From Squalus acanthias (taxonomy: Eukaryota): a stretch of 64,000 nucleotides of DNA. The stretch is from NCBI GenBank assembly GCA_030390025.1, contig CM059452.1, forward strand, positions 8,990,001 through 9,054,000. The letters run 5' to 3'. The position numbers and the translations under genes were made by a program. The notes beneath the pieces were generated by a model. The model had not been told where the DNA came from. It saw only the letters and a list, made by a program, of their open reading frames with translations, and did no database searches. Shown piece after piece: positions 24,502 to 62,755 of the stretch (the stretch's first letter is position 1; the number at the start of each line of letters is the position of its first letter).

Positions 24502-24777
24502 TCACTTGACCTGTAAAAGAGGGATAAAAGAATGAAGCAGAGATTTAGTGGTTTGGGGCATTTATCTCAGGGTTTTATCAATGAAACTTTTAGAGATTTG
24601 TCAAACCGCTTCAGTCAGATCGAAGTGTGAGAGGATTGAATCTTCTCACCTTCACTAGAGTGAGGGCAGCGCTGTAGGAAATGCTCAGGAAGAACAGGAT
24701 GATGAATGTGGAAGCGGTTGTCCAGATGTTGCCGCTCTCTTCCTCATAGTCTTCAATCAAGATGTGGTCTGAGGAAT
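24502..24777 (-). CDS. IGHM: Orphan IgM-type membrane exons TM1 (24777-24650) and TM2 (24510-24502)
   Basis: DSSDHILIEDYEEESGNIWTTASTFIILFFLSISYSAALTLVK|VK*. Intact AG/GT sites, KVK tail and AATAAA at about 24438-24433. No CH exon upstream before the CR1 nest. Confidence 0.85.
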
Positions 24778-25435
24778 CTACGGGGATGTAGAGGAGGAAA
24801 TACATTCAGATCGTTTATTAATCCAAGATATCATATTACTATTATATATTCTTTTCTTTTCCTTAAGATATTAGCTTTTTCTCTAATTTAATTTTCAATG
24901 TATGTCTTGTGTTAAGTTAATCTCTCTCAGCAATCTATCTCTGTTCCGAACTCCACAGTCGCTCTTCCTTTATGATCCTCCTATAGGCCGTGTTGGAAAA
25001 TATGACATTTTTTTCTTCAATGTCACACTCTGATTGATTTTGCATCAAGTTGGTACGATCTATCATTCGGGAATAATATGATAAAATATCGAGGGAGCTT
25101 TACTGATTGATATTGATTATTTTAACGATAGGTTTAGATATCTACTTATTTGGAGACTGTCAAGGGGGCTGGGTAAGAGACCAGATGTGAGTTAAAATCT
25201 TGTTTATTCATTTGTTATGTCAATGCTCTGAACATAATTAACTTTTATCAGTTTCCAACAAGAACAGTGATTCAGTATATGAGTAGGACCAGAATAGAGA
25301 AATGTGAGATGCTATGGTATCAGGAATTAATTATTCAGTACAACCGCTGGAGACTGTGTCCGTAAAAAGAGCATTTTAATTCTACATTCGTCTATAGCCT
25401 GACTTTTTTGTGCACGTACGTGCTTCCGTTTGTGT

Positions 25436-26830
25436 TTTCCCTTTCATAAAACCATGCTGACTCTGCTTGACTGCATTATGATTTTCCAAATGCCCTGCTA
25501 CTGCTTCCTTAATGAAGGACTCCAGCATTTTCCCAACGACAGATGTTAGGCTAACTGGTCTATAATTTCCTGCTTTCAGTATTCCTCCTTTCTTAAATAG
25601 GGGCGTTACATTTGCGGTTTTACAATCCGCTGGGACCTCTCCAGAGTCCAGGGAATTTTGGTAAATTGCAACCAATGCATCCACTGTCTCTGCAGCCACT
25701 TCTTTTAAGACCCTGGGATGCAGGCCAGCTGGTCCAGGGGACTTGTCATCTTTTAGTCCCATTATTTTACCAAGTACTTTTTCCTCAGTGATAGTGATTG
25801 TCTTTAGTTCCCCCCTCCATGTGGCCCCTTGATTATCCATTATTGGGATGTTGTTAGTGTCTTCCACAGTGAAGACAGATACAAAATATTTGTTCAGAGT
25901 CTCTGCCATTTCCCCGTTCCCCATTGTTAATTCCCCAGTCTCATCCTCTAAGAGACCAACGTTTACTTTAGCTACTCTCTTCCTTTTTATATACCTGTAG
26001 AAGCTCTTACTATCTGTTTTAATATTTCTTGCCGGTTTACTCTCATAATTCATCTTCTATCTCTTTATTTTTTTTTACTAATCCTTTGCTGGTTATTAAA
26101 AAATTCCCAATCCTCTGGCCTCCCACCAATCTTGGCAACATTGTATGCCTTCGTTTTCAATTTGATACTATCCTTTACTTCCTTGGTTTGCCACGGCTGG
26201 TGCTCCCTTCTCTTAAAATCTTTCTTTCTCACTGGAATGTATTTTTGTTGAGAGTTATGAAATATCTCCTTAAATGTCCGCCACTGCATTTCAACTGTCT
26301 TACCCTTTTTTTTCCAGTCCACTTTAGCCAGTTCTGCCCTCATGCCATTGTAATTGCCTTTGTTTAAGATCAGGACATTGGTTTGAGAGACAACTTTCTC
26401 ACCCTCCAACTGAATTTGAAATTCAACCATGCTGTGATCACTCTTTCCTAGAGGATCCTTTACTATGAGATCATTTATTAATTCTGTCTCATTACACAGT
26501 ACCAAATCAAAGATAGCCTGCCCCCGGGTTGGTTCCATTACATACTGTTCTAGGAAACCATCCCGGATACACTCTGTGAACTCCTCCTTAAGGCTACCAT
26601 GGCCACTTTGATTTATCCAATCAATATGGAGATTAAAATCACCCATGATTATTACCGTACCTTTTTTACAGGCCTCTATTATTTGTTGATTTATACTCTG
26701 TCCAGCAGTATTGCTACTGTTCGGGGACCTGTAAACTACGCCAACAAGAGACTTTTTCCCCTTATTATTTTTTATCTCCACCCAAACCGATTCTACATCT
26801 TGATCTTCTGAGCCAATATCACTTCTCAAT
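25436..26830 (-). mobile_element. CR1 LINE ORF2 fragment
   Basis: ORFs 26065-26829 (GDFN, SDHS) and 25382-26053 (NYRPVSLTS, QHGFMKGK). Confidence 0.9.
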
Positions 26831-29800
26831 AGAGCAAATTAGCAGTGGGGAAATTAAAAACCAGAGCGTGTCAGGAAGGGACAGAATATATAAAGGTAAA
26901 TTAGTACAGGGGGTAAAAGCAGGAATAAATTGTCACAAAACATGTTTAAAAGTTCTTTATCTGAATGCACGCAGCATTCGTAACAAAATAGACGAGTTGA
27001 CGGTACAAATAACTACACATGGGTATGATCTGGTGGCCATTACAGAAACATGGCTGCGAGATGACCATGACTGGGAACTAAACATCCAGGGGTATTTGAC
27101 TATTAGGAAGGACAGACAGGAAGGAAAGGGAGGTGGGGTGGCTAAGTTAATAAAGGATGGAATCACTGCAATAGTGAGAAATGATATTGGTTCAAAGGAT
27201 CAGGATAGTGAAACAGTTTGGGTGGAGATAAGGAATAATAAGGGGAAAAAGTCACGAGTGGGCGTAGTCTTTGGCCTCCTAACAGTTGTAACTCTATTGG
27301 TCGGAGTATAAATCAGGAAATAGTTGGGGCTTGTAATAAGGGAACAGCTATAATCATGGGAGATTTTAACTTTCATATTGACTGGACAAATCAAATTGGG
27401 CAGGGCAGCCTTGAGGAAGAGTTCATAGAGTGCATTAGGGACGGGTTCCTTGAGCAGTATGTTACTGAACCAACCAGGGGGCAGGCAATCTTAGATCTGG
27501 TCCTGTGTAATGAGACAGGATTAATTAAAAATGTTCTCGTAAAGGATCCCCTTGGAATGAGTGACCATAACATGGTTGAATTCCAAATTCAGTTGAAGGG
27601 TGAGAGAGTTGGATCTCAAACCAGCGTACTAAGCTTAAATAAAGGAGACTATGAAGGTATGAGAGCAGAGTTGACTAAAGTGGACTGGGAAAATAGATTA
27701 AGGTGTAAGACGGTACAGGAGCAGTGGTGTACATTCAAGGAGGTATTTCACAACTTTCAAGTAAAATATATTCCACTGAGGAAAAAGGGGCGTAAAAGAA
27801 AAGACAGCCATCCATGGCTAAGTAAAGTAATAAAGGATAGTATCCGACTGAAAACAAGGGCATATAAAGTAGCCAAATCTACTGGGAGGATAGAAGATTG
27901 GGAAGCATTTAAAAGCCAGCAAAGAATAACTAAAAGATTAATTAAGAAGGGGAAGATAGATTATGAAAGTAAACTAGCAAAAAATATAAAAACAGATAGC
28001 AAGAGTTTATACAGTTATATAAAAAGAAAAAGGGTGGCTAAAGTGAATGTTGGTCCCTTAGAAGACGAGACCAGGAAATTAGTAATGGGGAACACGGAGA
28101 TGGTAAATACGCTGAACAAATATTTTGTATCTGTCTTTACAGTAGAGGATACTAAAAATATCCCAACACTGGACAAACGGGGGGCTATTGGGGGGGAGGA
28201 GCTAAACACGATTAAAATCACTGAGGAGATGGTACTCGGTAAGATAATGGGACTTAAGGCGGATAAAGCCCCTGGACCTGATGGCTTACATCCTAGGGTC
28301 TTGAGAGAAGCAGCGGTAGGGATTGCGGATGCATTGGTGGTAATTTTCCAAAACTCCTTGGATTCGGGATAGGTCCCAGCAGATTGGAAAACTGCTAATG
28401 TAACGCCCTTATTTAAAAAGGGAGGGCGACAAAAGGCTGGAAACTATAGACCAGTTAGCATAACATCTGTGGTTGCTAAAATATTGGAGTCCATTATTAA
28501 GGAAGCAGTAACAGGATATTTGGATAAGCATAATTTAATCAGACAGAGTCAGCATGGTTTTATGAAGGGGAAATCATGCTTGACAAATTTGCTCGAATTC
28601 TTTGAGGACGTAACAAACAGGGTGGGTAAAGGGGAACCAGTGGATGTGGTGTATTTGGACTTCCAAAAGGCATTTGATAAGGTGCCACACAAAAGATTAC
28701 TGCACAAGATAAAAAAAATCACGGGATTGGGGGTAATATACTGGCATGGGTGGAAGATTGGCTATCTAACAGAAAACAGAGAGTTGGGATAAATGGTTCA
28801 TTCTCGGGTTGGCAATCAGTAACTAGTGGTGCTCCGCAAGGGTCAGTGCTGGGACCCCAACTCTTTACAATCTATATTAACGATTTGGAGGAGGGGACCA
28901 AGTGCAACGTATCCAAGTTTGCTGACGATACAAAGATGGGAGGAAAAGCAAAAGGACATAGACAGGTTAAATTAGTGGGCGAAAATTTGGCAGATGGAAT
29001 ATAATGTTGGAAAGTGTGAGGTTCTGCACTTTGGCAGAAAAAATCAAAGAACAAGTTATTATCTAAATGGAAAGAAGCTGCAAAGTGCTACAGTACAAAG
29101 GGATCTGGGAGTCCTGGTGCATGAAACACAGAAGGTTAGTATGCAGGTATCGCAGGTGATCAGGAAGGCCAATGGAATCTTGGCTTTTATTGCAAGGGGG
29201 ATGGAGTATAAAAGTAGGGAAGTCTTGTTTCGGTTATACAAGGTACTGGTGAGGCCTCACCTGGAATACTGCGTACAGTTTTGGTTTCCATATTTAAAAA
29301 ATGATATACTTGCTCTCGAGGCACTTCAGAGAAGGTTCACTCGGTTGATTCCGACGATGAGGGGGTTGACTTATGAGGAAAAAAAACCCAAAAAGGGTGA
29401 CTCAACCGTGGCTAACAAGGGAAATTAGGAATAGCATAAGATCCAAGGAGAGGGCATATAAAGTGGCCAGAAAAAGCGGTAGCCCTGAGGATTGGGAGCA
29501 GTTTAGGATTCAACAAAGGAGGACAAAGGGGTTAATTAAGAAGGGGAAAATAGAATATGAAAGTAAGCTTGCTGGGAACATAAAAACTGACTGTAAGAGC
29601 TTTTATAGATATGTGAAGAGAAAAAGATTAGTGAAATCAAGTGTAGGTCCCTTGCAGTCAGAAGCGGGGGAAGTTATAATGGGGAACAAAGAAATGGCAG
29701 ACCAATTAAATGCATATTTTGGTTCTGTCTTCACAAAGGAGGACACAAATAACCTCCCAGAGATGTTGGAGAACATACGGTCTGATGAAAGGGAGGAACT

Positions 29801-37320: not shown

Positions 37321-37350
37321 TTAATTCATTAATTTTAAAATTTGGAAGAC

Positions 37351-38706
37351 GTGCTCTGTATCACTGTGTGTCTGTAATCACCGCCATGTTAAGTATTGTG
37401 AACTCTCCCCTTGCTCTGTATCACAGTGTGTCTGTAATCCCCACCATGTTAAGGATTGTGAACTCTCTCCGTGCTCTGTATCACTGTGTGTCTGTAATCC
37501 CCACCATGTTCAGGTTTGAGAACTCTCTCCGTGCTCTGTATCACTGTGTGTCTGTAATCCCCACCATGTTCAGGTTTGTGAACTCTCTCCGTGCTCTGTA
37601 TCACTGTGTGTCTGTAATCCCCACCATGTTAAGGATTGTGAACTCTCTCCGTGCTCTGTAACACTGTGTGTCTGTAATCCCCACCATGTTAAGGATTGTG
37701 AACTCTCTCCGTGCTCTGTATCACTGTGTGTCTGTAATCACCGCCATGTTAAGTATTGTGAACTCTCCCCTTGCTCTGTATCACTGTGTGTCTGTAATCC
37801 CCACCATGTTAAGGATAGTGAACTCTCTCCGTGCTCTGTATCACAGTGTGTCTGTAATCACCACCATGTTAAGGATTGTGAACTCTCTCCGTGCTCTGTA
37901 TCACTGTGTGTCTGTAATCCCCACCATGTTCAGGTTTGTGAACTCTCTCCGTGCTCTGTATCACTGTGTGTCTGTAATCCCCACCATGTTCAGGTTTGTG
38001 AACTCTCTCCGTGCTCTGTATCACTGTGTCTGTAATCCTCCACCATGTTCAGGTTTGTGAACTCTCTCCGTGCTCTCTATCACTGTGTCTGTAATCCCCA
38101 CCATGTTCAGGTTTGTGAACTCTCTCCGTGCTCTGTATCACTGTGTGTCTGTAATCCCCACCATGTTCAGGTTTGTGAACTCTCTCCGTGCTCTGTATCA
38201 CTGTGTGTCTGTAATCCCCACCATGTTCAGGTTTGTGAACTCTCTCCGTGCTCTATATCACTGTGTGTCTGTAATCCCCACCATGTTCAGGTTTGTGAAC
38301 TCTCTCCGTGCTCTGTATCACTGTGTGCTGTAATCCCCAACATGTTCAGGTTTGTGAACTCTCTCCGTGCTCTCTATCACTGTGTGTCTGTAATCCCCAC
38401 CATGTTCAGGTTTGTGAACTCTCTCCGTGCTCTGTCACTGTGTGTCTGTAATCCCCACCATGTTCAGGTTTGTGAACTCTCTCCGTGCTCTGTATCACTG
38501 TGTGTCTGTAATCCCCAACATGTTCAGGTTTGTGAACTCTCTCCGTGCTCTCTATCACTGTGTGTCTGTAATCCCCATCGTGTTCAGGTTTGTGAACTCT
38601 CCCCTTGCTCTCTATCATTGTGTGTCTGTAATCCCCACCATGTTCAGGTTTTTGAACTCTCTCCGTGCTCTGTATCACTGTGTGTCTGTAATCCCCACCA
38701 TGTTCA
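37351..38706 (-). repeat. Tandem array of about 23 x 60-bp units derived from the adjacent V-segment RSS
   Basis: Unit CACAGTG-ATACAGAGCACGGAGAGAGT-TCACAAACC-TGAACATGGTGGGGATTACAGACA copies the RSS at 38707-38745 and its 3' flank. Confidence 0.93.
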
Positions 38707-38745
38707 GGTTTTTGTACGGCTCTCTCAGTGCTCTGTATCACTGTG
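38707..38745 (-). promoter_or_regulatory. Consensus 23-RSS of the supporting Vdelta
   Basis: CACAGTG + ATACAGAGCACTGAGAGAGCCGT (23 nt) + ACAAAAACC. Confidence 0.97.
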
Positions 38746-39042
38746 CTTTAGGTGGACTCAGTGCACAGTAATGCACAGCGGAGTCACTCAGTTGCAGTTT
38801 CGTGATGCTTAACCGGCTGATTTTCTTGGCAAGATCGACAGAAGCAGAAATTCGGCCCCCAGCAGCGTTTTCTATATTCCCCTCTCCTGAAGTGTGTCTC
38901 TGAAGCAGGTATTTTGGAGCCTGTCCTGGGGACTGACGGTACCAGTGTACTGTGTGCTGACAGATCCCTGAATATTCGCAGCTTAAAGTAACGGTGTCAC
39001 CGGCAGCAGAGGATTGTAGAGGCGCACCCTGTGACACGGAAT
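38746..39042 (-). CDS. TRDV: Leaderless NAR-TCR supporting TCR delta V segment
   Basis: CCCGCAG|AT TCC phase-1 acceptor directly at the mature N-terminus. DSVSQGAP...TLSCEYSGICQHTVHWYRQ...DSAVHYCALS with an extra CDR1 Cys. Consensus RSS, 3.2 kb downstream of a NAR-type VDJ. Confidence 0.88.
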
Positions 39043-41380: not shown

Positions 41381-41745
41381 GCCGCTGCAGGTATCGGACG
41401 GACCGCTGCAGGTATCGGACGGGCCGCTGCAGGTATCGGACGGGCCGCTGCAGGTATCGGACGGGCCGCTGCAGGTATCGGACGGGCCGCTGCAGGTATC
41501 GGACGGACCGCTGCAGGTATCGGACGGGCCGCTGCAGGTATCGGACGGGCCGCTGCAGGTATCGGACGGGCCGCTGCAGGTATCGGACGGGCCGCTGCAG
41601 GTATCGGACGGGACCGCTGCAGGTATCGGACGGACCGCTGCAGATATCGGACGGACCGCTGCAGGTATCGGACGGGCAGCTGCGGGTATCCTACGGGCCG
41701 CTGCAGGTATCGGACGGGCCGCTGCGGGTATCGGACGGGCCGCTG
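41381..41745. repeat. 21-bp CpG-rich minisatellite (CCGCTGCAGGTATCGGACGGG)n in the NAR-V/Vdelta intron
   Basis: About 17 near-identical tandem copies. Confidence 0.95.
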
Positions 41746-42246: not shown

Positions 42247-42798
42247 CGGCTGTGACAGTCACCACCGTCCCAGATCCATCCACATATTGATAATCATCCA
42301 CGCGTCCCCCCAGGAGGTTCCAGGGTCTGTACCCGTACTCAGCTTTACAGTAATAGGTGGCGCTGTCTTCAACTCGCACATCCCGAATTTCCAGCGAAAA
42401 TTTCTTTTCTGCCTTATTCGTAGACACAACAAATCGTCCTCCGCTCGAGATCCGCTCCCGCTCTGCCCCGGTCTCGGTTTGTCTGAAGAAATGACCATTG
42501 CGTAAAGGATAATCCCTATAACCAACATAGAAAACGCAGGTGATGGTGAGAGACTGACACTCCTCCCTGGTTACCGCTGGCGGGGTCTGTGTCACTGACT
42601 GACTGAAAGAGCCTGGAAATTAAACAGAGAGAGTTTAATGGGCCATCAGAGCCGAACCACACAACGGGGCTAAAACCCAGATAGTGTCCGCAATTCGGAT
42701 GGACCCGGGCAGCTTTATGTTAAATCCACACAATGTTTGTTTGATCGGTACTCACGGGGTAAACAGACACACAGGGTGAAAACAAGGAGGATTCCCAT
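42247..42798 (-). CDS. NAR-TCR V domain, pre-joined V(D)J (leader 42798-42756, VDJ exon 42612-42247)
   Basis: MGILLVFTLCVCLP|RSFSQSVTQTPPAVTREECQSLTITCVFYVGYRDYPLRNGHFFRQTETGAERERISSGGRFVVSTNKAEKKFSLEIRDVRVEDSATYYCKA-EYGYRPWNLLGGRVDDYQYV-DGSGTVVTVTA|GTAAGT. NAR hallmarks are the CDR2 deletion, ISSGGRF, YYCKA and DGxGT J motif. Extra FR1 Cys; no internal RSS. Confidence 0.9.
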
Positions 42799-44759
42799 CG
42801 TTCTGCTGCCTGGAGCTGATGGTTTATATGACGGGGAGCTGGAGACTGCAGCCCTGGACTGCTCTGGGAGACTGTACATCAGAGCTGGAATTTAGAGGGT
42901 CGAGTTAATTAGCACAGCTCGGTGCCCCGGAGATCATTGATGGGCCTCACGGTCCCCGGATCTCTGGCTGTGTGTTGTGTGAATAAGCGACAGGTTTAAA
43001 TAAGGAGCTGCAGTTTTCTGGCCCTTCATTGGTTCTCTGAGGCCGATGTGAAGGCCCCTCCCACATTAGTCTGATGTACAGGGGGGGACTTGTTCTGTCA
43101 GCAGAGGCTGCCGCTGTCCTTTGCCCCGCAGTAATGAGCTGGGAGGTCGGTTCACGTGTTTTATTGTGTGGTGTTTATTGCGGGTAGAATGTGGGCCCAG
43201 GACACCGGGAGAATCCCCCGCTCTTATTCCAATAGTGCCGGGGATTCTTTAACATCCTGCTGAACGGGCTGGCGGGACCTCGGTTCAGCGTCTGATCGAA
43301 GGACGGCGCCGCAGACCCTGCAGCACTCCCTCAGTCCAGCAACTGAGTGTTAGGTTACAATTTGAGATAGTCCAGGGCTATTTTCAATATACAGGCAGAC
43401 ATAGATAATATACACAAAGGTTAAATCTCCCTGTAATTTAAACAAATGCTTCCTGCACCGTCCCCTTCTATGGTTTGCATTTAAAAAGAAGTTTCAATGA
43501 ATTAATGATTGATTTCAAGGTCTCTAATATTCAGAGTTTCCAGGTGCAGTGACAGAGAATGAAGCGACACTCGGAAGGCCAATCGACATTGGAGGAACTT
43601 TGTGCTTGGGGCTTGTTTTAAAGAGCACAGTCACTACTTTGTGAAATCTGTTAATTTTGTATAAACTGTCTCTGACCCAGCAACATACTCTGATCAAATA
43701 AACCCTGTTTACAGGCCGCGATCAAAGGATCCGGGACACTAACAGGGGAGATGTGCAAAGGGCCGCACAATATTGCAGGCAGGCACGGAAAGGGCATCAA
43801 AGGACCAAAGGCGAGTTAAGGGCCACAGACGGACTGTACGTCACACAATCACGGCCGACAGTGCGTCACAGAAACATGGCCGACTGTACGTCACGCAAAT
43901 GGCCGTGTTGGACAAAGCATTGAACCGTGACCTTAGCACCGCCGGATGGGCTACCGCAAGATCCTAAACTGCACTTGATTCAAAATGTGGCCTTTGTTTC
44001 AGCTCTGCGCAATACAACTGCCCACATCTCACATTTTAAATACCTTTTGCCTGCCTACCGATTCACAGTTCAGCATGGAACTGATCCCAAAAGCTAACAC
44101 AGTTTAGGCACCAGTTGCTCACAACACTGAACTGTGTCATGGGACTTGCAATAATGTATGGGGCACCGAAGATGGCCCACGCAGAACAATGATTACTTTG
44201 AGAATCAGGTTTGCTGCTAATTTTGAAGATATTGATCTTTCTGTTTGGTCTCACATTATATTCCATTAACTCCTTGTAGAGAACCATAATTAACATCAAA
44301 ACGATGATATTGTGGGAGTTATGATGAAACACTACAATGCCGCATTTACGCTGCAAGCATCAGTTGATGCAAATTTCAATAAATAAACATTCCTGCTCTT
44401 AAAATGGTAATCACGGAGCGCAGTTCTGAACAGAGTGTTAAGCTGCGAGTTTGGTGAGTGAGGGAGTGATTCTTAAAGGCTAATCTCTTTAAAAAAAAAT
44501 CCAGTCTTCTGTGCGTGCAATTAGCATTTAACTTAAATTTAAATTTACTGTTTCAAGTTTTAAGTTTCTTCCAGGCTTGGACAAGGCGAAGCAAGCTCTG
44601 TGCTGGAGAGCAGGTGAGAGTAATTAATTAATTAACTTGTCTAATCTGGTTCTGTAACTGCCAGAAAGATCACTTATTTAAATCTCAGCAGTATAAATAA
44701 GGGAGGCTAGAGTGCAGTTTGTCACGGAGTGCAGATCGGAACAGAGTGTTAAGCTGCGA

Positions 44760-47700
44760 TTTTACATACATAGATACATAGAAGATAGGAGCAGGAGTAG
44801 GCCATCCGGCCCTTCGAGCCTGCTCCGCCATTTAATGAGATCATGGCTGATCCTCCAATTCAGTATCCCGTCCCCGCCTTCTCTCCGTAACCCTTAACCC
44901 CTTTTGCCTGTAGAAATATATCTAATTCCCTCTTAAATATATTTAATGAGCTGGCGTACACTGCCCTCTGTGGCAATGAGTTCCACAGGTTCACCACCCT
45001 CTGAGTGAAGAAATTCCCCCTCATTTCTGTCCTAAATGGTTTAGCCCTTATCCTTAAATTATGTCCTCTAGTTCTGTTCTCACCCGCCAAGGGAAACATT
45101 CCTTCTGCATCTAGTCTGTCTAGACCTGTCAGAATTTTATACACTTCTATGAGGTCCCCTCTCAATCTTCTAAACTCCAGTGTGTACATCCCTAAACTAC
45201 ATAGTCTCTCCTCATAGGTCAATCCCGCTATTCCTGGTATCAGCCTGGTGAATCGCCGCTGCACCCCCTCCATGGCAAGAACATCTTTCCTCAGATGAGG
45301 CGACCAAAACTGTACACAGTACTCGAGGTGTGGTCTCACCAGTGCCCTGTACAGCTGCAGCAAGGTATCCCTGTTCCTGTATTCCAACCCTTTTGCTATG
45401 AAGGCCAGCATACCGTTTGCCTTCTTGACCGCCTGTTGCACCTGCATGCTCGCCTTCAGTGACTGGTGTACAAGAACACCCAGGTCTCTCTGTACTTCCC
45501 CCTCTCCCAATTTATTGCCATTTAAATAATAATTTGCCCTCCCGTTCCTGCACCCAAGGTGGATAACTTCGCACTTGTCCACATTATAGTGCATCTGCCA
45601 TTTATCCGCCCAATCACCCAGTCTGTCCAAATCGCTCTGGAGCTTCCTGGTCTCCTCCTCTGAGCCCACCCCCCCTCCTAGTTTAGTGTCGTCTGCAAAT
45701 TTGGAAATGCTGCATCCGACTCCCTGATCCAGGTCATTAATGTAAATTGTGAACAGCTGGGGACCCAGGACAGATCCCTGTGGTACCCCACTTGTTACTG
45801 CCTGCCATTCAGAAAATGAGCCGTTTATTCCAACTCTCTGTTTTCTATCTGACAGCCAGTTCTCTATCCACGTCAATACTTTCCCCTTTATCCCATGAGC
45901 TTCAATTTTCCATGCTAATCTTTTATGTGGGACCTTGTCGAAGGCCTTTTGGAAGTCCAGGTACACCACATCTACTGGCTCTCCCCCATCTATTTTACCA
46001 GTTACTCCCTCAAAAAATTCCAATAGATTAGTCAAGCACGATTTACCCTTTGTAAATCCATGTTGACTCTGTCCTATCCTGTCCCCATTTGCTAAGTGCT
46101 CCGCTATTTCATCCTTAATGATGGACTCCAGCATTTTGCCCACAACTGATGTAAGGCTTAATCTGGAAGGGGAGGGGGAACAGCCAGTTGTCGTGATACA
46201 TGTTGGTACCAACGACGTAGCTAAAAAAAGGGAAGAGGTCCTACAAGTAGAATTTAGGGAGTTAGGAGCCAAGCTAAAAAGTAGGACCTCGAAGGTAGTA
46301 ATCTCTGGATTACTACCAGTGCCACGTGCTAGTAAGAGTACAGAGAACAGGATAGTTAGGCTAAATACGTGGCTTGAGCAGTGGTGTAAGAGGGAGGGTT
46401 TTAAATTTTTGAGGCATTGGAACCAGTTTTGTGGTAGGTGTGACCTATACAAAAGGGACGGTCTACACCTGTGCAAAGATGGAACTGATGTTCTCGGGGT
46501 AATTTTTGATAAAGCAGTTCGGGAGCATTTAAACTAGTATGGCAGGGGGCTAGAAACCTATGTAGTGAAATAGAGGAAAGTGAAAGGCAGACAGAAATAA
46601 ATGGTAAAAGGGTGAGGAACAAAAAACAAAGGGCCAAACTAATTCATAAAAAATGTGAGCATAAAAAAAGCCTGAGGGTTTTATACCTTAATGCGAGAAG
46701 CATCAGGAACAAGGTAGATGAATTAGCTGTGGAAATAGAGGTTAATAATTATGATCTAATTGGGATTACGGAAACATGGTTGCAGGGTGAGCAGGGCTGG
46801 GAGCTTAACATACAGGGGTATTCAGTATTTAGGAAGGATCGACAAAAAAGAAAGGGAGGAGGGGTAGCATTGCTGGTAAAAGAGGGGATAAATGCAATTG
46901 AAAGGAAGGATATTAACTCAGTTAATACAGAATCTATATGGGTGGAGCTAAGAAATAGCGAGGGGCGAAAAACATTAATAGGAGTGGTATATAGGCCTCC
47001 AAATAGTAAAATAGAGGTTGGGGAGGGCATCACGAGGGAAATTAGAGAAGCGTGCAATAAGAGCACAGCTGTCATCATAGGTGACTTTAACTTACATATA
47101 GATTGGACTAGCCTAATCAGTAAAAATAATGAGGAGGAGGAATTCCTTGAGTGTTTAAGGGATGGTTATCTGGATCAATATGTCGAGGAACCAACTCGGG
47201 AACAGGCTATATTGGACTGGGTACTGTGCAATGAGAAGGGACTAATTAGTAATCTTGTTGTACGGGGACCCTTGGGTCAGAGCGATCATAACATGATCGA
47301 TTTCTCACTCGAAATGGAGAGCGAAGAAATTGACTCAGAGACTAAGGTCCTGAATTTAAACAAGGGGAATTATGATGCTATTAGACGGGAACTGAGTAGG
47401 TCTGATTGGACAACGTTCCTGGGAGGACTGGAGGTAGATAAACAATGGCAAGCATTTAAAGATAGAATGACAAAATTGCAAAAATTGTTTATACCAATCT
47501 GGCATAAAAGGAAATCTAAAAAGGTGACTCAACCGTGGATAACAGGGGAAATTAGAGACAGCATAAAATCCAAAGATAGGGCGTATAAAATAGCCAAAAA
47601 AAGCGCCAGAGCGGAAGATTGGGAACAGTTTAAGATAGAGCAAAGGAGGACAAAGGGCTTAATCAAGAGGGGCAAAATAGCTTACGAAAGCAAGCTGGCG

Positions 47701-48165
47701 GAAAATATAAAAACTAACTCCAAAAGCTTTTATAAGTATATCAAGAGGAAAAGACTGGTGAAAACCAAAGTTGGTCCATTGCAGTCAGATACGGGGGAAT
47801 ATATAACGGGAAATAAGGAAATGGCAGACCAACTAAATGCATACTTTGGGTCAGTCTTTACGAAGGAAGACACAAAAAACCTCCCTGGGATATCGGGAAA
47901 AATAGGGACATTGGCAAAGGAGGAACTGACGCAACTCAATATCTCTAAGGATATGGTGTTAAGGAAGCTAAAGGGATTGAAGGCGGACAAATCCCCAGGG
48001 CCTGATAACATGCATCCTAGGGTACTGAAGGAGGTGGCCCTAGAGATAGCGGATGCACTAAGTATGATTTTTCAGAATTCATTAGACTCGGGAACAGTGC
48101 CCATGGATTGGAGGGTAGCTAACGTTACCCCACTATTCAAAAAGGGGGGTAGGGAAAAAGCAGGT
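44760..48165. mobile_element. Young CR1 insertion with an inverted 5' segment (3' part minus strand 46157-44760; 5' part plus strand 46157-48165)
   Basis: The plus-strand ORF2 ends at GGREKAGN. The minus-strand part resumes at SLTSVVGKML and runs open to the ORF2 stop and a (TCTATG)-type tail. Confidence 0.88.
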
Positions 48166-48166
48166 A

Positions 48167-51100
48167 ATTTGGTGAGTGAGGGAGTGAAACTTAAAGGTTA
48201 ATCTCTTTTCTTTATAAAATCTAGTCTTGTGAGCTTGCAATTAGCATTTAACTTAAATTTAAATTTACAGTTTCAAGTGTTAAGTTTCTTCCAGGCTTGG
48301 GCAGAGATAAGCAAGCTCTGTGCTGGAGAGCAAGTGAGAGTAATTAATTAATTAAGTGGTCTAATCTGGTTCTGTAACTGCCAGAGAGCTCACTTATTTA
48401 AATCTCAGCAGTATAAATAAGGGAGGCTAGAGTGCAGTTTGTCAAGGAGTGCAGATCGGAACAGAGTGTTAAGCTGCGAGTTTGGTGAGTGAGCGAGTGC
48501 GGGGAGGGAGGTGATCCTTTCTTTTTCTATCTTTGTCAGCTTCCAGGAGAGCAGGAGCTAAAAAGCTGCACAAGTGGGGAAAGAGAACCAGCGGGAGTTC
48601 GGCTCTGTGACACCCCCCAACCACATCTGGAGAAAAATAAAAGGTGACATCACTGGGAAAAGGGTAAGTGATTGGTTGGTGAGTATTTTGCTCACTTCCC
48701 TTATCTTTTAAAGCCCAGGAAATGTATTCGTAATTGTAAGGTTTCATTAGTACTAGTTTACTAGCAGTAATAAATCTTATTAGGTGTAGTAGGGTTTGTT
48801 AATTATTAATTAATAAAAATAACTTCATTAAGACTCAATAAAAATCGGCGATGTGTTGCGACTGCAGTATGTGGGAGCTCCTGGACACCAGTATGATTCA
48901 CGACGAACAAATCTGCGGTAAGTGTCTGCGGCTTGAGGAGCTTCGGCTCAGAGTTGATGAGCTGGAGGCAGAGCTGCGGAATCTGCGATGCATCAGGGAG
49001 GGGAAAAATTACCTGGACACTTTATTCCAGGAGGCAGTCACACCCCTTAGGAGAGGGTCTTCTGATTTGGTCAGTGGTCAGGGACAGGAGGATGTCACTG
49101 CGAGTGAGGCAGATTTGGGGTCCCAGGAGGTGGAGGAGCCTCAGCCTTTGCAATTGTCCAACAGGTTTGAGGTTCTTACGGCCTGTATGGATGAAAGCGG
49201 TGGCTGCAAGGTGGGTGAGCAAACTGACCATGGAACCGAGGTACAGGAAGCCATTCAAGCGGGGGGAGTTAATAGGAATGTAGTGGTAATTTGGGACAGC
49301 ATATTCAGGGGGATAGATACAGTTCTCTGCGGCCAAGAGCGAGAGTCCAGACGGCTGTGTTGCCTACCCAGTGCCAGGGTTCAGGACATCTGCTCTGGGC
49401 TGGAGAGGAACTTGCAGTGGGAGGGGGAGGAGCCAGTGGTCGTGGTCCATGTAGGTACCAACGACATAGGTAGAACTAGGAAAGAGGTTCTGCTGAGAGA
49501 GTATGAGCAGCTAGGGGCTAAATTAAAAAGAAGAACCTCAAGGGTAATAATGTCTGCATTATTACCTGAGCCACGAGCAAATTGACATAGGGTAAATAAA
49601 ATTAGAGAGATGAATGCGTGGCTCAAAGACTGGTGTGGGAGAAATGGGTTTCAATTCCTGGGGCACTGGCACCAGTACTGGGGAAAGTGGGATCTGTATC
49701 ATTGGGACGGTCTTCACCTGAAGCGTGCTGGGACCAGTGTTCTGGCGAGTCGTATAACTAGGGCGGTAGAGAGGGCTTTAAACTAAATATTGGGGGCATG
49801 GGATCAAATTTGGGAAGATGTGGCAATTCAAAGATTAGAGACAAGGCAATAGAGAAAGGTATTAATATGGGAAATGATAAACAGACCGTGACAGGAAGGG
49901 ATAGAGAGTACAAATCTAAGAGTAAATCAACAGATAAGGCTAGAGGTTACAAAAATAATAAAAGGACAAAACTAAATGCTCTGCATCTGAATGCACGTAG
50001 CATTCGAAACAAAAGAGAGGAACTGATAGCGCAAATAGAAATAAATATGATCTGATAGCCATTACAGAAACATGGCTGCAGGATAACATAGATTGGGACC
50101 TGAATATTGAAGGGTTCATGACATTTAGGAAGGACAGGAAGGTGGGAAAAGTTGGAGGGCTGGCTCTGTTAATTAATGATGTTATAAGCACATTGGAGAG
50201 GGATGACCTAAGTTCAGGAAACCAGATGTAGAAGCGGTTTGGGTAGAAATGAGAAATAATAAAGGCAGGAAGTCACTTGTGGGAGTGGTGTACAGGCCCT
50301 TTAACATTAACCACATGGTAGGATGGTGTATAAAAGAAGAAATAATGGGAGCTTGTCAGAAGGGTACGCCAATAATCATGGGGGATTTTAATCTGCATAT
50401 AGACTGGAAAAATCAGATGGGCAAAGGTAGCCTCGATGAGGAGTTCATGGAATGCTTTCGGGATAGTTTCTTACAACAGCACGTTCTGGAGCCAACCAGA
50501 GAGCAGGCTGTACTTGACCTGGTATTGTGCAACGAGATAGGATTAATTAATGACCTCATAGTGAAGGCGCCCCTAGGTAGCAGCGATCATAATATGATTG
50601 AATTTTACATTCAGTTTGAGAGAGAGAAGAGCTGGTCCAAGACTAGTATTTTAAACTTAAATAAGGGCAATTATGAGGGCATGAAAGCAGAGCTAGCTAA
50701 AGTGAACTGGCAAATTAGGTTAAGGGATAGGTCAATAGAGTTGCAGTGGCAGACACTTAAGGGGATGTTTCAAAATACACAGAATATATACATTCCAACA
50801 AGAAAGAAAAATTCCAACGGGAGGACCCACCATCCGTGGTTAACTAAAAAAGTTAAAGATAGTATTAAACTTAAAGAAAAAGCATATAATTGCGCAAAGA
50901 TGGGTGGCAGGTCAGAAGATTGGACAGAGTATAAAAAACAGCAAAGAATGGCTAAAAGATTAATAAGGAGAGAAAAATTAGAGTACGAGAGAAAGCTAGC
51001 TAGAAGTATAAAAACAGATAGTAAGAGTTTCTATAGATATTTTAAAAAGAAAAGAGTTAACAAAGTGAGCGTTGGTCCTATAAAAAGTGGAGAATTAATA

Positions 51101-52682
51101 ATTGAAAATAAGGAGATGGCAGTTGAATTGAACCGGTATTTTGAATCGGTCTTCACTATAGAGGATACAAATAACATCCCAGAAATAGCTGTAAATCAGG
51201 AAATGGAAGGGAGGGAAGAACTCAAGAAAATTATAATCACCAGGGAAGTGGTAATGAGCAAATAATTGGAGCTGCGGGCTGACAAGTCCCCGGGTCCTGA
51301 TGGACTTCATCCTAGGGTCTTAAAAGAAATGGCTAGTGAGATAGTTGATGCGTTGGTTTTAATTTTCCAAAATTCCCTAGATTTGGGGAAGGTTCCATTA
51401 GATTTGAAAATAGCGAATGCAACTCCTTTATTCAAAAAGTGGGGGGGGAGACAGAAAGCAGGAAACTATAGGCCAGTTAGCTTAACATCTGTCATAGGGA
51501 AGATGTTAGAAGCTATTATTAAAGACGTTATAGCAAGGCACTTAGAAAAGTTCAAAGTAATCAGGCAGAGTCAACATGGTTTGGTGCAAGGGAAATCTTG
51601 TTTAACCAATTTATTGGAGTTCTTTGAGGAAGTAACATGTGCTGTGGATAAAAGGGAACCGGTGGATGTACTGTACTTAGATTTCCAGAAGGCGTTTGAT
51701 AAGGTGCCACATCAAAGGTTATTGCGGAAAATAAAAGCTCATGGTGTAGGGGGTAACATATTGGCATGGATAGAAGATTGGCCAGCTAACAGGAAACAGA
51801 GAGTAGGCATAAATGGGTCATTTTCTGATTGGCAAGATGTAACGAGTGGTGTGCCACAGGAATCAGTGCTGGGGCCTCAACTTTTTACAATTTATATGAA
51901 TGACTTGGATGAAGGGACCGAAGGTATGGTTGCTAAATTTGCTGATGAGGTGGGAAAGTAAATTGTGAAGCAGACATAAGGAGGCTACAAAGGGATATAG
52001 ATAGGTTAAGTGAGTGGGCGAAGATCTGGCAAATGGAGTATAATGTGGGAAAATGTGAAGTTGTCCATTTTGGCAGGAAGAATAAAAAAGAAGCATATTA
52101 TCTAAATGGTGAGAGATTGCAGAGCTCTGAGATGCAGAGGGATCTGGGTGTCCTAGTGCATGAATCGCAAAAGGTTACTATGCAGGTACAGCAAGGAATT
52201 AGGAAAGCTAATAGAATGTTATCGTTTATTGCAAGAGGAATTTAATACAAAAGTAGGGAGGTTATGCTTCAGTTATACAGGGCATTGGTGAGACCACATA
52301 TGGAGTACTGTGCACAGTACACAGTATTGGTCTCCTTATTTAAGAAAGGACGTAAATGCGTTGGAAGCAGTTCAGAGAAGGTTTACTAGACTAATACCTG
52401 GAATGGGCGGGTTGTCTTATTAGGAAAGGTTGGACAGGCTAGGCTTGTATCCGCTGGAGTTTAGAAGAGTAAGAGGTGACTTGATTGAAACATATAAGAT
52501 CCTGAGGGGTCTGGACAGGGTGGATGTGGAGAGGATGTTTCCTCTTGTGGGAGAATCTAGAACTAGGGTAACTGTTTAAAAATAAGGGGTCGCCCATTTA
52601 AGAGAGAGATGAGGAGAAATGTTTTCTCACAGAGGGCCGTGAGTCTTTGGGACTCTCTTCATCAGAGGGCGGTGGAAGCAGA
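48167..52682 (+). mobile_element. Degenerate near full-length CR1 (its 5' UTR unit of about 310 bp is also present at 44450-44760)
   Basis: ORF1 CCDCSMW...HVGTND and ORF2 fragments with EN/RT motifs. The 3' end is cut off by duplication copy B. Confidence 0.9.
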
Positions 52683-54149
52683 GACTGTCTCTTTTGTGGG
52701 AATTGAAGTCACACGTCACACCACAATAGGCGACTGTACCACATGGTTGACTGTACATCACACAAATATGGCCGAATGTACGTCACAAAATTTTGGCCGA
52801 CTGTACATCACAAAACTTTGGCCGACTGTACATCACACAAACATGGCCACCGCCAGTTTGCCCTGCAGCAGATGACGACAAAATGCGTTCCAAACGTCAC
52901 AGCACCGTGATTGGCTGTTTTCCACATTCATTCAGTGTCAGAGGTCACGGGCAGTCTCTTTTCGCCGCTCAGCGTTAAAGATTCTCCGTGTGTGCAGCCT
53001 CTGACCCCGACTCACAACTGTGACCCCGGGGATCAGCTCGGAAAGTCTTCAATGGGCTCTGCACCGCCCGAGATTCCCTGAGCCTGTGGACAAGTCATGA
53101 GACGGGAGACACAGCGAGAGCAGCTAAAGATATTTGTCGCTTGGAGGGGAGGGAGATAGATTGGGGCAGAGACAGTTTAAGCAGCAACTCAAACCATTGC
53201 CAAACTTCCTTCCCAGCCCTTCAGAAGGGCCGCCTAATTCTTCCGTCCCTCAACCCGGTCTGATATTCAGCCACAGGAGACCTCGCGCCTGAACTCCAGG
53301 AGTTCAGAGCGAAAGCAGCGCCGCATCAGAAGGAACATTCCTGACTCGGGTCGGGCCAGAAACCTCTGGAGAAGTTTCCGTGGCCGGGAGGCACCGAAAG
53401 AATCCGAGGATCCGGTGAAGGATGGCGCAAAACTGCAGGGAAACAGGGAGCGGAGAAGGTCACTGGCGGATCCCTGGGGTGATGTTCAGTGAGTTCATGG
53501 AGATGGTATCAGAGGAAATGGAGCAGAGCAGGGAGAAACGCTGTCAGGGATACAGGAGACAGAAGGTCCGGGTAAATTGGTCTGTGTGAACCATTTGGAC
53601 TCGGGTCCCCTTTAAAGGAGCTAATCCAAAACAAAAAATACATTATATGCTGCCCTCCCTGGGAGAAGAGCTGCACTCACACACTTGGCCTGAACAAAAC
53701 CAGAATGATATTCCATCAGAATTTGATTTTGCCCGGCTATCACACAACCTGTATCCAGCGGTGTCCACTGGGCGCAGAAGGTGCCAAATATACCGTGGGA
53801 TCCCTTATCACGTCTCCTTCAAATACAATCTCTCCTTCTTTCCTCTCTGCCTTTGGTATCTGTGTGCGTATATAACAGAACAGGTGGAGGGAAAGAGAGT
53901 GTGTGTAACAAAAAATTTGGAGCGTCTGTGTATATAACAGAAAATCTGGAGAGGGAATCTGTGTGTGTGGAACAGAAGAGCTGGAGAGAGAGTTAGTCTG
54001 TGTGTATAACAGAAAAAGTGAAGAGAGTTTATGTGTGTGTATAAAAGAAAAGCTGGAGAGAGAGCCTCTGTGTCGGATAAGCCCTAGACTCTTCGAATCA
54101 TTTCCAGGGTTTGTGATCCCCAGTGTGACTGTGTCAGATATCTAACAAG

Positions 54150-55462
54150 TGTGTACCTGCCCTGGGAGAGTTTGATGGGTCAGTGTAGAGGGAGCTTTAC
54201 TCTGTATCTAACCCGTGCTGTACCTGCCCTGGGAGTGTTTGATGGGACAGTGTAGAGAGAGCTTTACTCTGTATCTAACCCGTGCTGTACCTGCCTTGGG
54301 AGTGTTTGATGGGACAGTGTAGAGGGAGCTTTACTTTGTATCTAACCCGTGCTGTACCTGCACTGGGCGTGTTTGATGGGACAGTGTAGAGGGAGCTTTC
54401 CTCTGTATCTAACCCGTGCTGTACCTGCACTGGGCGTGATTGATGGGACAGTGTAGTGGGAGCTTTCCTCTGTATCTAACCCGTGCTGTACCTGTCCTGG
54501 GAGTGTTTGATGGGAAAATGTACAGGGAGCTTTCCTCTGTATCTAACCCGTGCTGTACCTGCTCTGGGAGTGTTTGATGGGACAGTGCAGAGGGAGCTTT
54601 ACTCTGTATCTAACCCGTGCTGTACCTGCCCTGGGAGTGTTTGATGGGACAGTGTCGAGGTAGCTTTACTCTGTATCTAGCCCGTGCTGTACCTGCCCTG
54701 GGAGTGTTTGATGGGACAGTGTAGAGGGAGCTTTACTCTGTATCTAACCCGTGCTGTACCTGCCCTGGGAGTGTTTAATGGGACAGTTTAGAGGGAGCTT
54801 TACTCTGTATCTAACCCGTGCTGTACCTGCCCTGTGAATGTTTGATCGGACAGTGTAGAGAGAGCTTTAGTCTGTATCTAACCCGTGCTGTACCTGCCCT
54901 GGGTGTGTTTGATGGGACAGTGTAGAGGAAGCTTTACTCTGTACCGAACCAGTGCTGTACCTGCCCTGGGAGTGTTTGATGGGACAGTGTAGAGGGAGCT
55001 TTACTCTGTATCTAACCCGTGCCGTACCTGTCCTGGGAGTGTTTAATGGGACGGTGTAGAGGGAGCTTTACTCTGTATCTAACCCGTGCTGTACCTGCCC
55101 TGGGATTGTTTGATGGGAGAGTGTAGTGGGAGATTTACTCTGTATCTAACCCGTGCTTTAACTGCCCAGGGAGTGTTTCACGGGACAGTGTAGAGGGAGC
55201 TTTACTCTGTATGTAACACTTGCTGTACCTGCCCTGGGAATGTTTGATGGGACAGTGTAGAGGGAGCTTTACTCTGCACCTAACCCGTGCCCTACCTGCC
55301 CTGGGAGTGTTTGACGGGACAGTGTAGTGGGAGCTTTACTCTGTGTCGAACCCGTGCTGCACCTGCCCTGGAAGTGTTTGATGGGAGAGTGCAGAGGGAG
55401 CTTTACTCTGTATCTAACCCGTTCTGTACCTGCCCTGGGAGTGTTTGATGGGACAGTGTAGA
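54150..55462. repeat. 67-bp tandem repeat (continues at 58120-58270)
   Basis: Same unit as 22890-23672. Confidence 0.93.
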
Positions 55463-55464
55463 CA

Positions 55465-59086: not shown

Positions 59087-59363
59087 TCACTTGACCTGTA
59101 AAAGAGGGATAAAAGAATGAAGCAGAGATTTAGTGGTTTGGGGCATTTATCTCAGGGTTTTTATCAATGAAACTTTTAGAGATTTGTCAAACCGCTTCAG
59201 TCAGATCGAAGTGTGAGTGGATTGAATCTTCTCACCTTCACTAGAGTGACGGCAGCGCTGTAGGACATGCTCAGGAAGAACAGGATGATGAATGTGGAAG
59301 CGGTTGTCCAGATGTTGCCGCTCTCTTCCTCATAGTCTTCAATCAAGATGTGGTCTGAGGAAT
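59087..59363 (-). CDS. IGHM: IgM membrane exons TM1 (59363-59236) and TM2 (59095-59087)
   Basis: DSSDHILIEDYEEESGNIWTTASTFIILFFLSMSYSAAVTLVK|VK*. Phase-1 acceptor matches the internal donor in Cmu4. Confidence 0.92.
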
Positions 59364-61104: not shown

Positions 61105-61935
61105 CTTCCCTCTCTCTGGTGGGGGAGTGGGATACAGTGGGTTAACAATTGCCCTTTCCCCTCTCACTGGTAGGGGAGTGGGGGGTACAGTGGGTTAACA
61201 ATTGCCCTTTCCCCTCTCACTGGTAGGGGAGTGGGGGTACAGTGGGTTAACAATTGCCCTTTCCCCTCTCTCTGGTGGGGGAGTGGGGGGTACAGTGGGT
61301 TAACAATTGCCCTTTCCCCTCTCTCTGGTGGGGGAGTGGGAGGACAGTGGGTTAACAATTGCCCTTTCCCCTCCCTCTCTCTGGTGGGGGAGTGGGAGGT
61401 ACAGTGGGTTAACAATTAACCTGCCCATCTCGCTGGTGGGGGAGTGGGAGGTACAAAGGGTTAACAATTAACCTTCCCCTCTCGCTGGTGGGGGAGTGGG
61501 AGGTACAGTGGTTTAACAATTAACCTTCCCCTCTCGCTGGTAGGGGGGTGGGAGGTAGAGTGGGTTAACAAATGCCCTTTCCCTCTCTCTGGTGAGGGAG
61601 TGGGGGGTACAGTGGGTTAACAATTACCCTTTCCCCTCTCTCTGGTGGTGGGGGAGTGGGGGTACAGTGGGTTAACAATTGCCCTTTCCCCTCTCTCTGG
61701 TGGGGGAGTGGGGGTACAGTGGGTTAACAATTGCCCTTTCCCCTCTCTCTGGTGGTGGGGGAGTGGGGGGTACAGGGGGTTAATAATTGCCCTTTCCCCT
61801 CTCTCTGGTGGGGGAGTGGGGGGTACAGTGTGTTAACAATTGCCCTTTCCCCTCTCTCTGGTGGGGGAGTGGGGGGTACAGTGTGTTAACAATTGCCCTT
61901 TCCCCTCTCTCTGGTGGGGGAGTGGGGGTACAGTT
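61105..61935. repeat. About 55-bp G-run minisatellite in the IgM secretory-to-TM intron
   Basis: Unit GGTGGGGGAGTGGGGGGTACAGTGGGTTAACAATTGCCCTTTCCCCTCTCTCT, about 15 copies. Confidence 0.9.
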
Positions 61936-62320: not shown

Positions 62321-62335
62321 TTTATTGGTTTTATT
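62321..62335 (-). terminator. Secretory-form polyadenylation signals
   Basis: Two AATAAA on the minus strand about 30-40 nt after the Cmu4 secretory stop. Confidence 0.75.
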
Positions 62336-62363
62336 CAAGAACTGAAATGCAATCCAGTGATTC

Positions 62364-62755
62364 TCATTGACAAGAATTCACGGTGTCCATCAGAACAAGG
62401 GAAATGTTCACAAAACTGGGTTTACCGCTGGATTTATTAACCGGTCTGTTGATGATCTTCAAGGGGGTCGCTTCATGTCCCACCACACAGGAGTAAGAAG
62501 CGCTGCTGGCCCACTCCTCCGCTGCAATGGATAACAGGCTGTACATGAAGAAGGAACTGCTGCCGTTCTCCGCCATCACCTCGGTGTTCTTGTCGTTGCC
62601 GGAATTCACCGGCTTGTCATTGAGGGTCCACTTGACGAAGATCTCTCGGGGGGAGAAACCTCTCACTAAGCAGGTGAGGGTGACGAACCTCTGAGCGGAG
62701 ACTTCTTCTGCCGGGGGCAGGAGGACAGACACGGACGGTTCCCGCGGATCTTTAA
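62364..62755 (-). CDS. IGHM: IgM heavy chain Cmu4 exon with secretory tailpiece
   Basis: CTGCAG|TT acceptor. [42 protein letters not shown]...YSCVVGHEA...[26 protein letters not shown] glycosylation site, penultimate Cys, and internal donor G|GTAAAC at 62426/62425. Resembles shark IgM as recalled, not IgNAR. Confidence 0.93.

Follow-up and report, generated by a model that had tools for sequence, protein, structure and literature searches.

The window, by which we mean the whole 64,000-nucleotide stretch of Squalus acanthias DNA analysed here, carries a NAR-TCR cassette between two broken IgM gene leftovers, inside a 4.3-Mb mixed antibody/TCR array on contig C29. Read along the minus strand, the exon order is that of the preliminary description, with every exon present: Cmu4-secretory, TM1-TM2, the joined NAR-TCR VDJ, the supporting Vdelta and a second TM1-TM2. 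The exon matches lie far above chance (E<1e-70 for the Cmu4 paralogues).

IgM, NAR-TCR and TCR V elements of the window

The Cmu4 exon with its secretory tailpiece (62364..62755, minus strand) is an open frame with an intact phase-1 acceptor, contains an internal donor at 62425 and is followed on the same strand by a poly(A) signal at 62335-62321. It matches Triakis IgM at 85% and nurse shark IgM at 82%, together with the Pfam C1-set. The TM1 exon that goes with it (59236..59363, minus strand) is identical to horn shark membrane IgM at 31 of 42 residues, and the TM2 exon (59087..59095, minus strand) encodes VK-stop. A functional elasmobranch IgM cluster has the form V-D-D-J-Cmu1-4-TM, of which the window holds Cmu4-secretory, TM1 and TM2, and neither VH, two D and RSS-bearing JH nor a joined VDJ, nor Cmu1, Cmu2 or Cmu3. 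The flanks, where the missing parts were to be looked for, hold an RSS-less JH of this remnant at C29:9,068.1 kb, and no VH, D or Cmu1-3 for it within 264 kb around the window. The embedded IgM cluster proposed earlier therefore stands for its three terminal exons and not for the remainder, and the VH that was to be sought on Cdelta transcripts does not exist in these surroundings.

The loss of Cmu1, Cmu2 and Cmu3 can be placed at 63,150 (minus strand), where the JH-Cmu1 intron is fused to the Cmu3-Cmu4 intron and where masked blastn against complete IgM clusters jumps by 4.9-5.6 kb. Genome-wide, this junction occurs at exactly three places, i.e., C29:7915361, C29:8059668 and the window. Compared with the majority of eight copies, the window Cmu4 carries 6 nonsynonymous changes over 291 sites and 2 synonymous changes over 87 sites, small numbers that give a ratio of about 0.9. 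Four of the five copies retaining Cmu1-3 show 0-1 changes and the fifth (8951) shows 6; the Cmu1-3-deleted copies show 3, 8 and 9. The IgM pieces of the window are likely non-functional passengers. Their decay is not proven, because neither Cmu4 nor the two TM exons have lost their open frames or splice sites, and because the Cmu1-3-bearing copy 8951 is as changed as the deleted copies. The IgM 3' flank includes a 67-bp satellite (54139..55462), which is met again at 22889-23672 and at the joints where the array was rearranged.

The NAR-TCR cassette begins with a V leader exon (42756..42798, minus strand) that has an ATG and a phase-1 donor. The joined V-D-J exon (42247..42612, minus strand) is in frame, has an intact J donor and is single-copy in the assembly; comparison with the 20 other NAR V on C29 resolves it into a V end, 9 nt of D, about 19 untemplated G/C-rich nt and J. 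Its translation finds VNAR as top PDB matches, and it has both hallmarks given for NAR V in PMC1845163, a Cys in the a-b loop (REECQSL) and absence of the WYRK Trp (HFFRQ). The supporting Vdelta exon (38746..39042, minus strand) has an open frame, a CDR1 Cys and an intact acceptor. A perfect 23-RSS (38745-38707, minus strand) adjoins it and opens an RSS region array (37350..38745, minus strand) that continues in about 23 tandem 60-bp copies with degenerate nonamers. A NAR-TCR supporting Vdelta is expected to have no leader; seven of nine copies examined have a leader-like remnant about 580 nt upstream of theirs, out of phase in six, and that of the window has a weak donor. The cassette shares its leader, its a-b loop Cys, its lack of the WYRK Trp, and the CDR1 Cys and 23-RSS of its supporting Vdelta with the doubly rearranging TCR delta, or NAR-TCR, as described in PMC1845163 and PMC5931798, from which it differs in that V-D-J is pre-joined and only Vdelta would rearrange.

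The 21 NAR V on C29 comprise 12 split, four V-D-joined and five VDJ-joined examples, and the window cassette, with no V-D-J step left to somatic rearrangement, belongs to the last class. The other four VDJ joins have one common junction, and two V-D joins are present in two copies each. The window join could instead be a somatic rearrangement of one lymphocyte caught in the assembly. It is single-copy, and a TdT-like insert of about 19 nt sets it apart from the four copies joined at one common junction. We nevertheless regard somatic capture as unlikely: the supporting Vdelta of the window has not rearranged, the 21 NAR V include at least three other germline joins, the shared VDJ junction is also found in run X7, which bears the label of another organism, and a deletion from a single cell would rarely be retained by assemblers. 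In the reads, no contig of runs X1, X5, X7 and X9 spans 42262-42325; run X1 covers the window NAR V and the J intron at single-copy depth, and the V 3' end appears neither joined nor unjoined.

Eight TCR alpha/delta V-like segments occupy 2.1-20.0 kb, two of which (14.7k and 2.3k) look intact. The nearest to the second TM (19663..20008, plus strand) is a pseudogene with an FR1 stop and an intact 23-RSS (at 19970); it faces the IgM TM and ends 4.5 kb from it, in keeping with the earlier statement that TCR V segments follow within 5 kb. The next (16769..17108, plus strand) is a pseudogene with a stop and a frameshift, whereas those at 14434..14976 and 2085..2564 (both plus strand) have a leader, an open frame and a 23-RSS and are likely usable. 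The minus-strand orientation assigned to this block applies to only three segments (15.6k, 12.6k and 11.1k); the remaining five (19.7k, 17k, 15.2k, 14.7k and 2.3k), among them the two nearest, lie on the plus strand.

Modular structure and the C29 array

The second pair of membrane exons consists of an orphan TM1 (24650..24777, minus strand), whose upstream parts have all been replaced by CR1 fragments, and a TM2 (24502..24510, minus strand). It had been ascribed to partial duplication of the first, to which it is 93.3% identical; its match to the copy at C29:6.82 Mb is 97.4%, low scores elsewhere in this comparison (e.g., 8464, 7507 and 6898) reflecting replaced 3' flanks and not exon divergence. 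Together with its CR1 junction, the second TM matches the C29:6.82 Mb copy at 99.2% over 2.75 kb. Local tandem duplication is ruled out by this closer relationship to a copy 2.2 Mb away. The CR1-to-TM joint itself repeats at C29:6.822-6.825 Mb (99.2%) and 7.338-7.340 Mb (97.4%).

Two modules, lying head to tail, can be distinguished. Module A, which starts 23 kb outside the window, comprises NAR V-D-J, supporting Vdelta, RSS array, satellite, RSS-less JH, Cmu4-secretory and TM. Module B comprises the joined NAR VDJ, supporting Vdelta, RSS array, CR1 nest and orphan TM, and then an inverted TCR V block; further copies of its inner joints, at 95-99%, lie at 6.82 and 7.34 Mb, and the TM-flank/V block is found again in four places (94-95%). 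The modules are joined by a nest of CR1-type LINE fragments with RT motifs (44411..52686), both edges of which are single-copy among the best 40 candidates scored for each, so that this is the sole joint without a second copy at that depth of scoring. The apparent sandwich is likely the product of two separately amplified modules, built by segmental duplication and deletion.

Between 5.97 and 10.27 Mb, C29 carries at least 31 Cmu4 exons, counted from the 150 best of 549 candidates scored: at least 30 have intact frames (92-100%; 18 plus, 12 minus) and one is frameshifted. The same array has at least 16 supporting Vdelta (10 plus, 6 minus) and at least 21 NAR V, and about 16% of it was covered by base-level reading. 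TCR alpha/delta V exons lie between IgH clusters, the arrangement that marks an elasmobranch antigen receptor complex (AgRC), and the interdigitation of IgM and TCR genes claimed for the window extends, with NAR-TCR cassettes, across all 4.3 Mb. An array of IgM clusters with TCR V blocks and NAR cassettes dispersed in it describes the arrangement better than a TCR array containing a single IgM. Farther along, at C29 16.7-18.0 Mb, NAR-V-like matches and 45% Cmu4-like matches suggest IgNAR.

The TCR D, J and C genes that were to be located are found on a separate contig, C911. It holds the one Cdelta of the genome and TRAC, and runs from a start inside a 95%-identical IgM through the same TCR V families to D, J, Cdelta, Jalpha and Calpha. 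Linkage of the window array to TRDC/TRAC is only inferred, because these genes lie on a different contig whose start matched no C29 copy above 95% (40 candidates scored). An AgRC is further marked by synteny with PSMB5, IgW, IgNAR and UrIg2; of 28 matches to the proteasome family as a whole, in which PSMB5 was not singled out, none lies on C29 or C911.

This separation, the single-copy edges of the CR1 nest, a 171-N gap on C29 (at 5,879,881, 81 kb left of the first IgM) and the presence of similar blocks on several small contigs would all fit a misjoin within the nest (52.7-44.4 kb), or an orphon block unlinked to TRDC/TRAC. We consider both improbable. The 264 kb around the window are free of N, the remaining joints recur in diverged copies, and a misjoin in the nest would leave standing an interleaving that recurs throughout the array. 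If C29 were unlinked, this animal, which has a single Cdelta, would have no NAR-TCR, because C911 gave no match above 45% to NAR V or supporting Vdelta. Linkage is also seen in the white shark data of PMC12227049.

The composite unit and its possible history

In five copies, a V-less IgM constant region is preceded on the same strand, at a distance of 15-23 kb, by an NAR-TCR cassette. The satellite-JH joint is found at exactly five places, always 8 nt inside JH; this position suggests a germline RAG cut, although the satellite side carries no RSS. Cmu1-4 is retained in two of the five, with open frames at 8.454-8.459 and 9.536-9.541 Mb, and the NAR V of one of these two is frameshifted. Rearrangement of the supporting Vdelta to D-JH-Cmu within the unit is ruled out on paper, since none of the five copies has a D or a JH RSS.

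The ancestral state would be NAR cassettes facing an IgM 3' end, a convergent layout still present at C29:6.89 and 7.49 Mb. A deletion between the 67-bp satellite and the coding end of JH in an IgM of opposite orientation, likely started by a germline RAG cut, would have produced the V-less unit now present in five copies, three of which would later have lost Cmu1-3. Recombination in T cells would use the 23-RSS of the supporting Vdelta to join it to Ddelta-Jdelta, with the IgM debris deleted or inverted, and the NAR exon would then be spliced onto the supporting Vdelta of the rearranged chain. The cassette has likely stayed functional, working with the distant TCR delta D-J-C. The account as a whole (two amplified modules, dead IgM passengers and a cassette probably working with distant TCR delta segments) is one that we hold with considerable confidence.

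The composite could also be read as a working chimeric gene, in which the NAR VDJ skips the unrearranged Vdelta to form a single-V heavy chain, splicing to Cmu1 in the two Cmu1-4 copies and to Cmu4 or TM in the three deleted copies and module B. The germline RAG cut at JH would then have fused the cassette to a V-less IgM, and use as a single-domain-V IgM would have amplified the unit fivefold. The same-strand arrangement in five copies, the open Cmu1-4 frames in two and the uniform phase 1 of donors and acceptors are compatible with such a gene, and heavy-chain-only antibodies are known to arise by losing CH1. A transfer of NARTCR V to an Ig cluster has, moreover, been proposed as the origin of IgNAR (Flajnik 2025, PMC12227049). 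Phase 1 is, however, the rule in all Ig exons, the Vdelta acceptor 3 kb downstream of the NAR J would be expected to be used first, one of the two Cmu1-4 copies has the frameshifted NAR V, and the window Cmu4 substitutions appear neutral. In an automated and weak comparison, a Cmu-like domain above 32% identity was found in none of 70 NAR-V/supporting-Vdelta protein models from other elasmobranchs. Both the chimeric gene and its amplification through use are very unlikely; if true, single-domain-V IgM would re-enact, in a living species, the TCR-to-Ig transfer from which IgNAR has been proposed to originate.

Relation to known receptor loci

Marsupial TCR mu is a two-V chain with one V germline-joined. 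The window cassette is likewise a two-V TCR arrangement with one V pre-joined, differing in that the pre-joined domain is the distal NAR and that of TCR mu is membrane-proximal. The joins seen here also resemble the germline-joined Ig genes of sharks (Lee et al. 2000, PMC2193156) in clean RSS removal, trimmed coding ends, N or P additions and later spread of the joined gene, and differ from those described there in affecting a TCR cassette; at the satellite-JH joint, the JH coding end meets satellite and not V or D.

The closest parallel is white shark chr27, where TCR alpha C is followed by the same mixed IgM/TCR array (Flajnik 2025, PMC12227049). This AgRC likewise has IgM clusters among TCR alpha/delta V in both orientations, plus NARTCR cassettes. 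Its Table S1 includes rows for 'IgM (missing V)', 'IgM pseudo?', 'NARTCR V(gj)V(gi)V' and 'NARTCRdV (part of above IgM?)', and the stingray sheet has 'IgM C only' (PMC12227049). Squalus acanthias is distinguished from that AgRC by the number of Cmu4 counted and by TRDC/TRAC on a separate contig. IgM/TCR interleaving, V-less IgM and germline-joined NARTCR are already published for white shark, to which the window adds another shark. The new detail is the five copies in which an NAR-TCR cassette precedes a V-less IgM constant region, with the joint 8 nt inside JH. Table S1 of PMC12227049 gives gene models only, without the repeated NAR-cassette/V-less-IgM unit, breakpoints or history. No description of the repeated unit was found in the literature searched, a scope outside which most subscription journals fall.

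In sum, the value of the locus is modest and lies in a base-level history of TCR and IgM reshuffling, in which a 67-bp satellite, CR1 nests and, likely, germline RAG cuts take part. Its five exact loci make the proposed NARTCR-to-Ig exon transfer testable. If the pre-joined NAR VDJ of the window is germline, it would give this genome a second fixed NAR-TCR specificity, independent of the first.

Exons of the window and the remnant IgM

The exons named in the preliminary description were all found on the minus strand, in the order given there: the Cmu4 exon of an IgM, including its secretory tail (62755–62364), a first copy of the IgM membrane exons TM1 and TM2 (59363–59087), a NAR-TCR leader with joined VDJ exon (42798–42247), a supporting Vdelta and its perfect 23-RSS (39042–38707), and a second, orphan TM1-TM2 (24777–24502). 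The Cmu4 shows 85% identity to the IgM of Triakis and 82% to that of nurse shark, 31 of 42 residues of the first TM1 match horn shark membrane IgM, and the solved structures closest to the NAR exon are VNAR domains. As in the NAR-TCR hallmarks given by PMC1845163 (leader, Cys in the a-b loop, no WYRK Trp), the NAR exon has the leader and the loop cysteine and is missing the tryptophan. A leader-like remnant 5' of the supporting Vdelta (39619–39578, minus strand) is in phase with a weak donor, and is out of phase in six paralogues. Minisatellites of 27, 21 and 52 bp occupy 3983–4525, 7345–10273, 41381–41745 and 61108–61934.

The embedded IgM cluster first proposed is a remnant, without VH, D or Cmu1-3: none belonging to this Cmu4 lies within the 264 kb searched, where annotation of the flanks yielded a JH alone, 14 kb upstream of the window and with its RSS lost. 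The joint of the Cmu1-3 deletion falls at 63,150 and is identical at three sites in the genome. The JH is joined to a 67-bp satellite 8 nt within its coding end, with about 11 letters inserted. This joint occurs at five places, and at all five a NAR-TCR cassette (the NAR exon with its leader, and the supporting Vdelta) lies directly upstream on the same strand; two copies keep Cmu1-4 with open frames and three carry the Cmu1-3 deletion. The interval from Vdelta to JH in this five-copy unit is IgM 3' flank, inverted, and a layout with the cassette facing an IgM tail, still present at 6.89 and 7.49 Mb, is what we infer to be its parent. A single deletion between the satellite and the JH of an IgM cluster in opposite orientation would have made the V-less unit. 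By the position of the joint alone, germline RAG likely started that deletion; RAG-type germline joins with trimming are documented for sharks in PMC2193156, and the satellite side of the joint has no RSS. No published description of the composite was found in the part of the literature covered.

Two modules in succession

The IgM had also been thought partly duplicated in place. The second TM is only 93.3% identical to the first but 97.4% identical to an orphan TM at 6.82 Mb, which rules out a local copy. Together with its CR1 joint it matches the 6.82 Mb copy at 99.2% across 2.75 kb, the joint between the RSS array of the Vdelta and CR1 is present at 6.82 Mb (96%) and 7.34 Mb (95%), and the TM flank with its inverted V block is found again in four places (94–95%). 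With a local origin of the second TM excluded and these joints recurring elsewhere, the sandwich is one module (cassette and deleted IgM) followed by another (cassette and orphan TM). The two meet through an 8.3-kb CR1 nest, with no gap; no second copy of the nest edges was found among the candidates scored, and this is the sole joint for which we cannot vouch.

Past the second TM, TCR V segments were expected to continue on the minus strand, but five of the eight are on the plus strand; the nearest two are pseudogenes oriented toward the TM, and two of the eight appear intact. In Flajnik et al. 2025 (PMC12227049), TCR alpha/delta V exons are situated between IgH clusters, and Table S1 lists for white shark chr27 'IgM (missing V)' and 'IgM pseudo?' beside IgM, TCR V in either orientation, and NARTCR cassettes of which one bears the mark (gj), an interleaving that is the arrangement seen here, and for stingray 'IgM C only'. 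In sum, the arrangement is real, though partly misdescribed, and adds one more case of a published layout: the exons and the interleaving of IgM and TCR genes stand, whereas the TCR V strand, the whole IgM cluster and the local TM duplication do not.

The surrounding array and its probable link to Cdelta

The window occupies positions 8,990,001–9,054,000 of its scaffold (C29). From 5.97 to 10.27 Mb, this scaffold carries, in both orientations, at least 30 Cmu4 exons with intact frame (92–100% identity) and one frameshifted, by the scoring of 150 out of 549 candidates. The same interval has 21 NAR V, 16 supporting Vdelta and numerous TCR alpha/delta V, again in both orientations. The window is flanked by complete IgM clusters, about 55 kb away on one side (9,107–9,126 kb; V-D-D-J split) and 33 kb on the other (8,940–8,957 kb; VH joined), the latter headed by an in-frame, germline-joined VH-D-JH (L015; C29:8,940,078–8,940,440). 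At C29:5,870–5,948 kb the array is bordered by extensive satellite, in blocks of 27-bp and 67-bp units, together with an assembly gap. A NAR V-D-J at C29:7,698–7,699k has a flank like that of the window as far as 40.4 kb, with no match to the supporting Vdelta. About 7 Mb from the array (C29:16.6–18.2 Mb), NAR-V-like (45–48%) and C-domain matches suggest IgNAR clusters, with broken Cmu4 copies.

The TCR delta and alpha constant genes were located, not on this scaffold but on a separate contig, C911, with the only Cdelta found at 583 kb and Calpha at 782–784 kb. The parts fetched (200 of 864 kb) hold IgH-like V, one D, 15 J motifs, Cdelta and Jalpha, and no match above 45% to the NAR cassette was found on C911. 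The contig starts inside an IgM of 95% identity, followed by the same TCR V families as the array. Among 40 candidates scored, no overlap above 95% was found between the C911 start and C29, and C29 has a gap at 5,879,881. The array is likely, by inference, linked to Cdelta and Calpha. Immediately 5' of Ddelta (C911:503,915–519,385) are three IgH-like V with 23-RSS, 39–44% identical to IgM VH and possibly TAILV or IgW-type.

The joined NAR exon and its possible use

Among the 21 NAR V on C29, 12 are split, four are V-D joined (two events) and five are VDJ joined. The two independent V-D pre-joined alleles (C29:7,490k, 8,832k, 8,438k, 9,556k) could still undergo D-J joining, as the D 12-RSS and J 23-RSS are retained. 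Four of the five joined VDJ have a single junction in common, present also in X7, a sequencing run labelled as another organism; each of these four (C29:6,809k, 7,896k, 8,200k, 8,596k) sits between a split NAR V-D-J and a supporting Vdelta, and could allow chains with three V, or alternative tips. The junction in the window is unique and in frame: the V end is templated, and between it and J come 9 nt of D and about 19 added G/C-rich letters. The exon is very probably germline; public contigs neither show nor exclude its junction.

Behind every supporting Vdelta on C29 (16 of 16), its RSS region is repeated in tandem as 60-bp units (37350–38745 in the window), with from 2 to at least 83 heptamers, one to four having a near-perfect 23-spacer nonamer; read-through protein P0045, from another source, hints that a second shark has this array too. 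Such arrays might provide alternative sites for cutting, serve in loading RAG, or simply be neutral.

Splicing of the NAR V onto Cmu, which would give a working NAR-V-Cmu chain, is allowed by the exon phases, but such a chain appears in 0 of 70 related protein models and is very improbable. The window's Cmu4 has six nonsynonymous and two synonymous changes, which is near neutral on small counts, with frames and splice sites still open. The IgM pieces are likely passengers and would be unable to rearrange. For the cassette we favour a delta chain: in T cells, deletion or inversion at its 23-RSS would bring the supporting Vdelta to Ddelta-Jdelta, and the NAR exon, already joined, would splice onto the rearranged Vdelta, so that the tip of the chain would be fixed.
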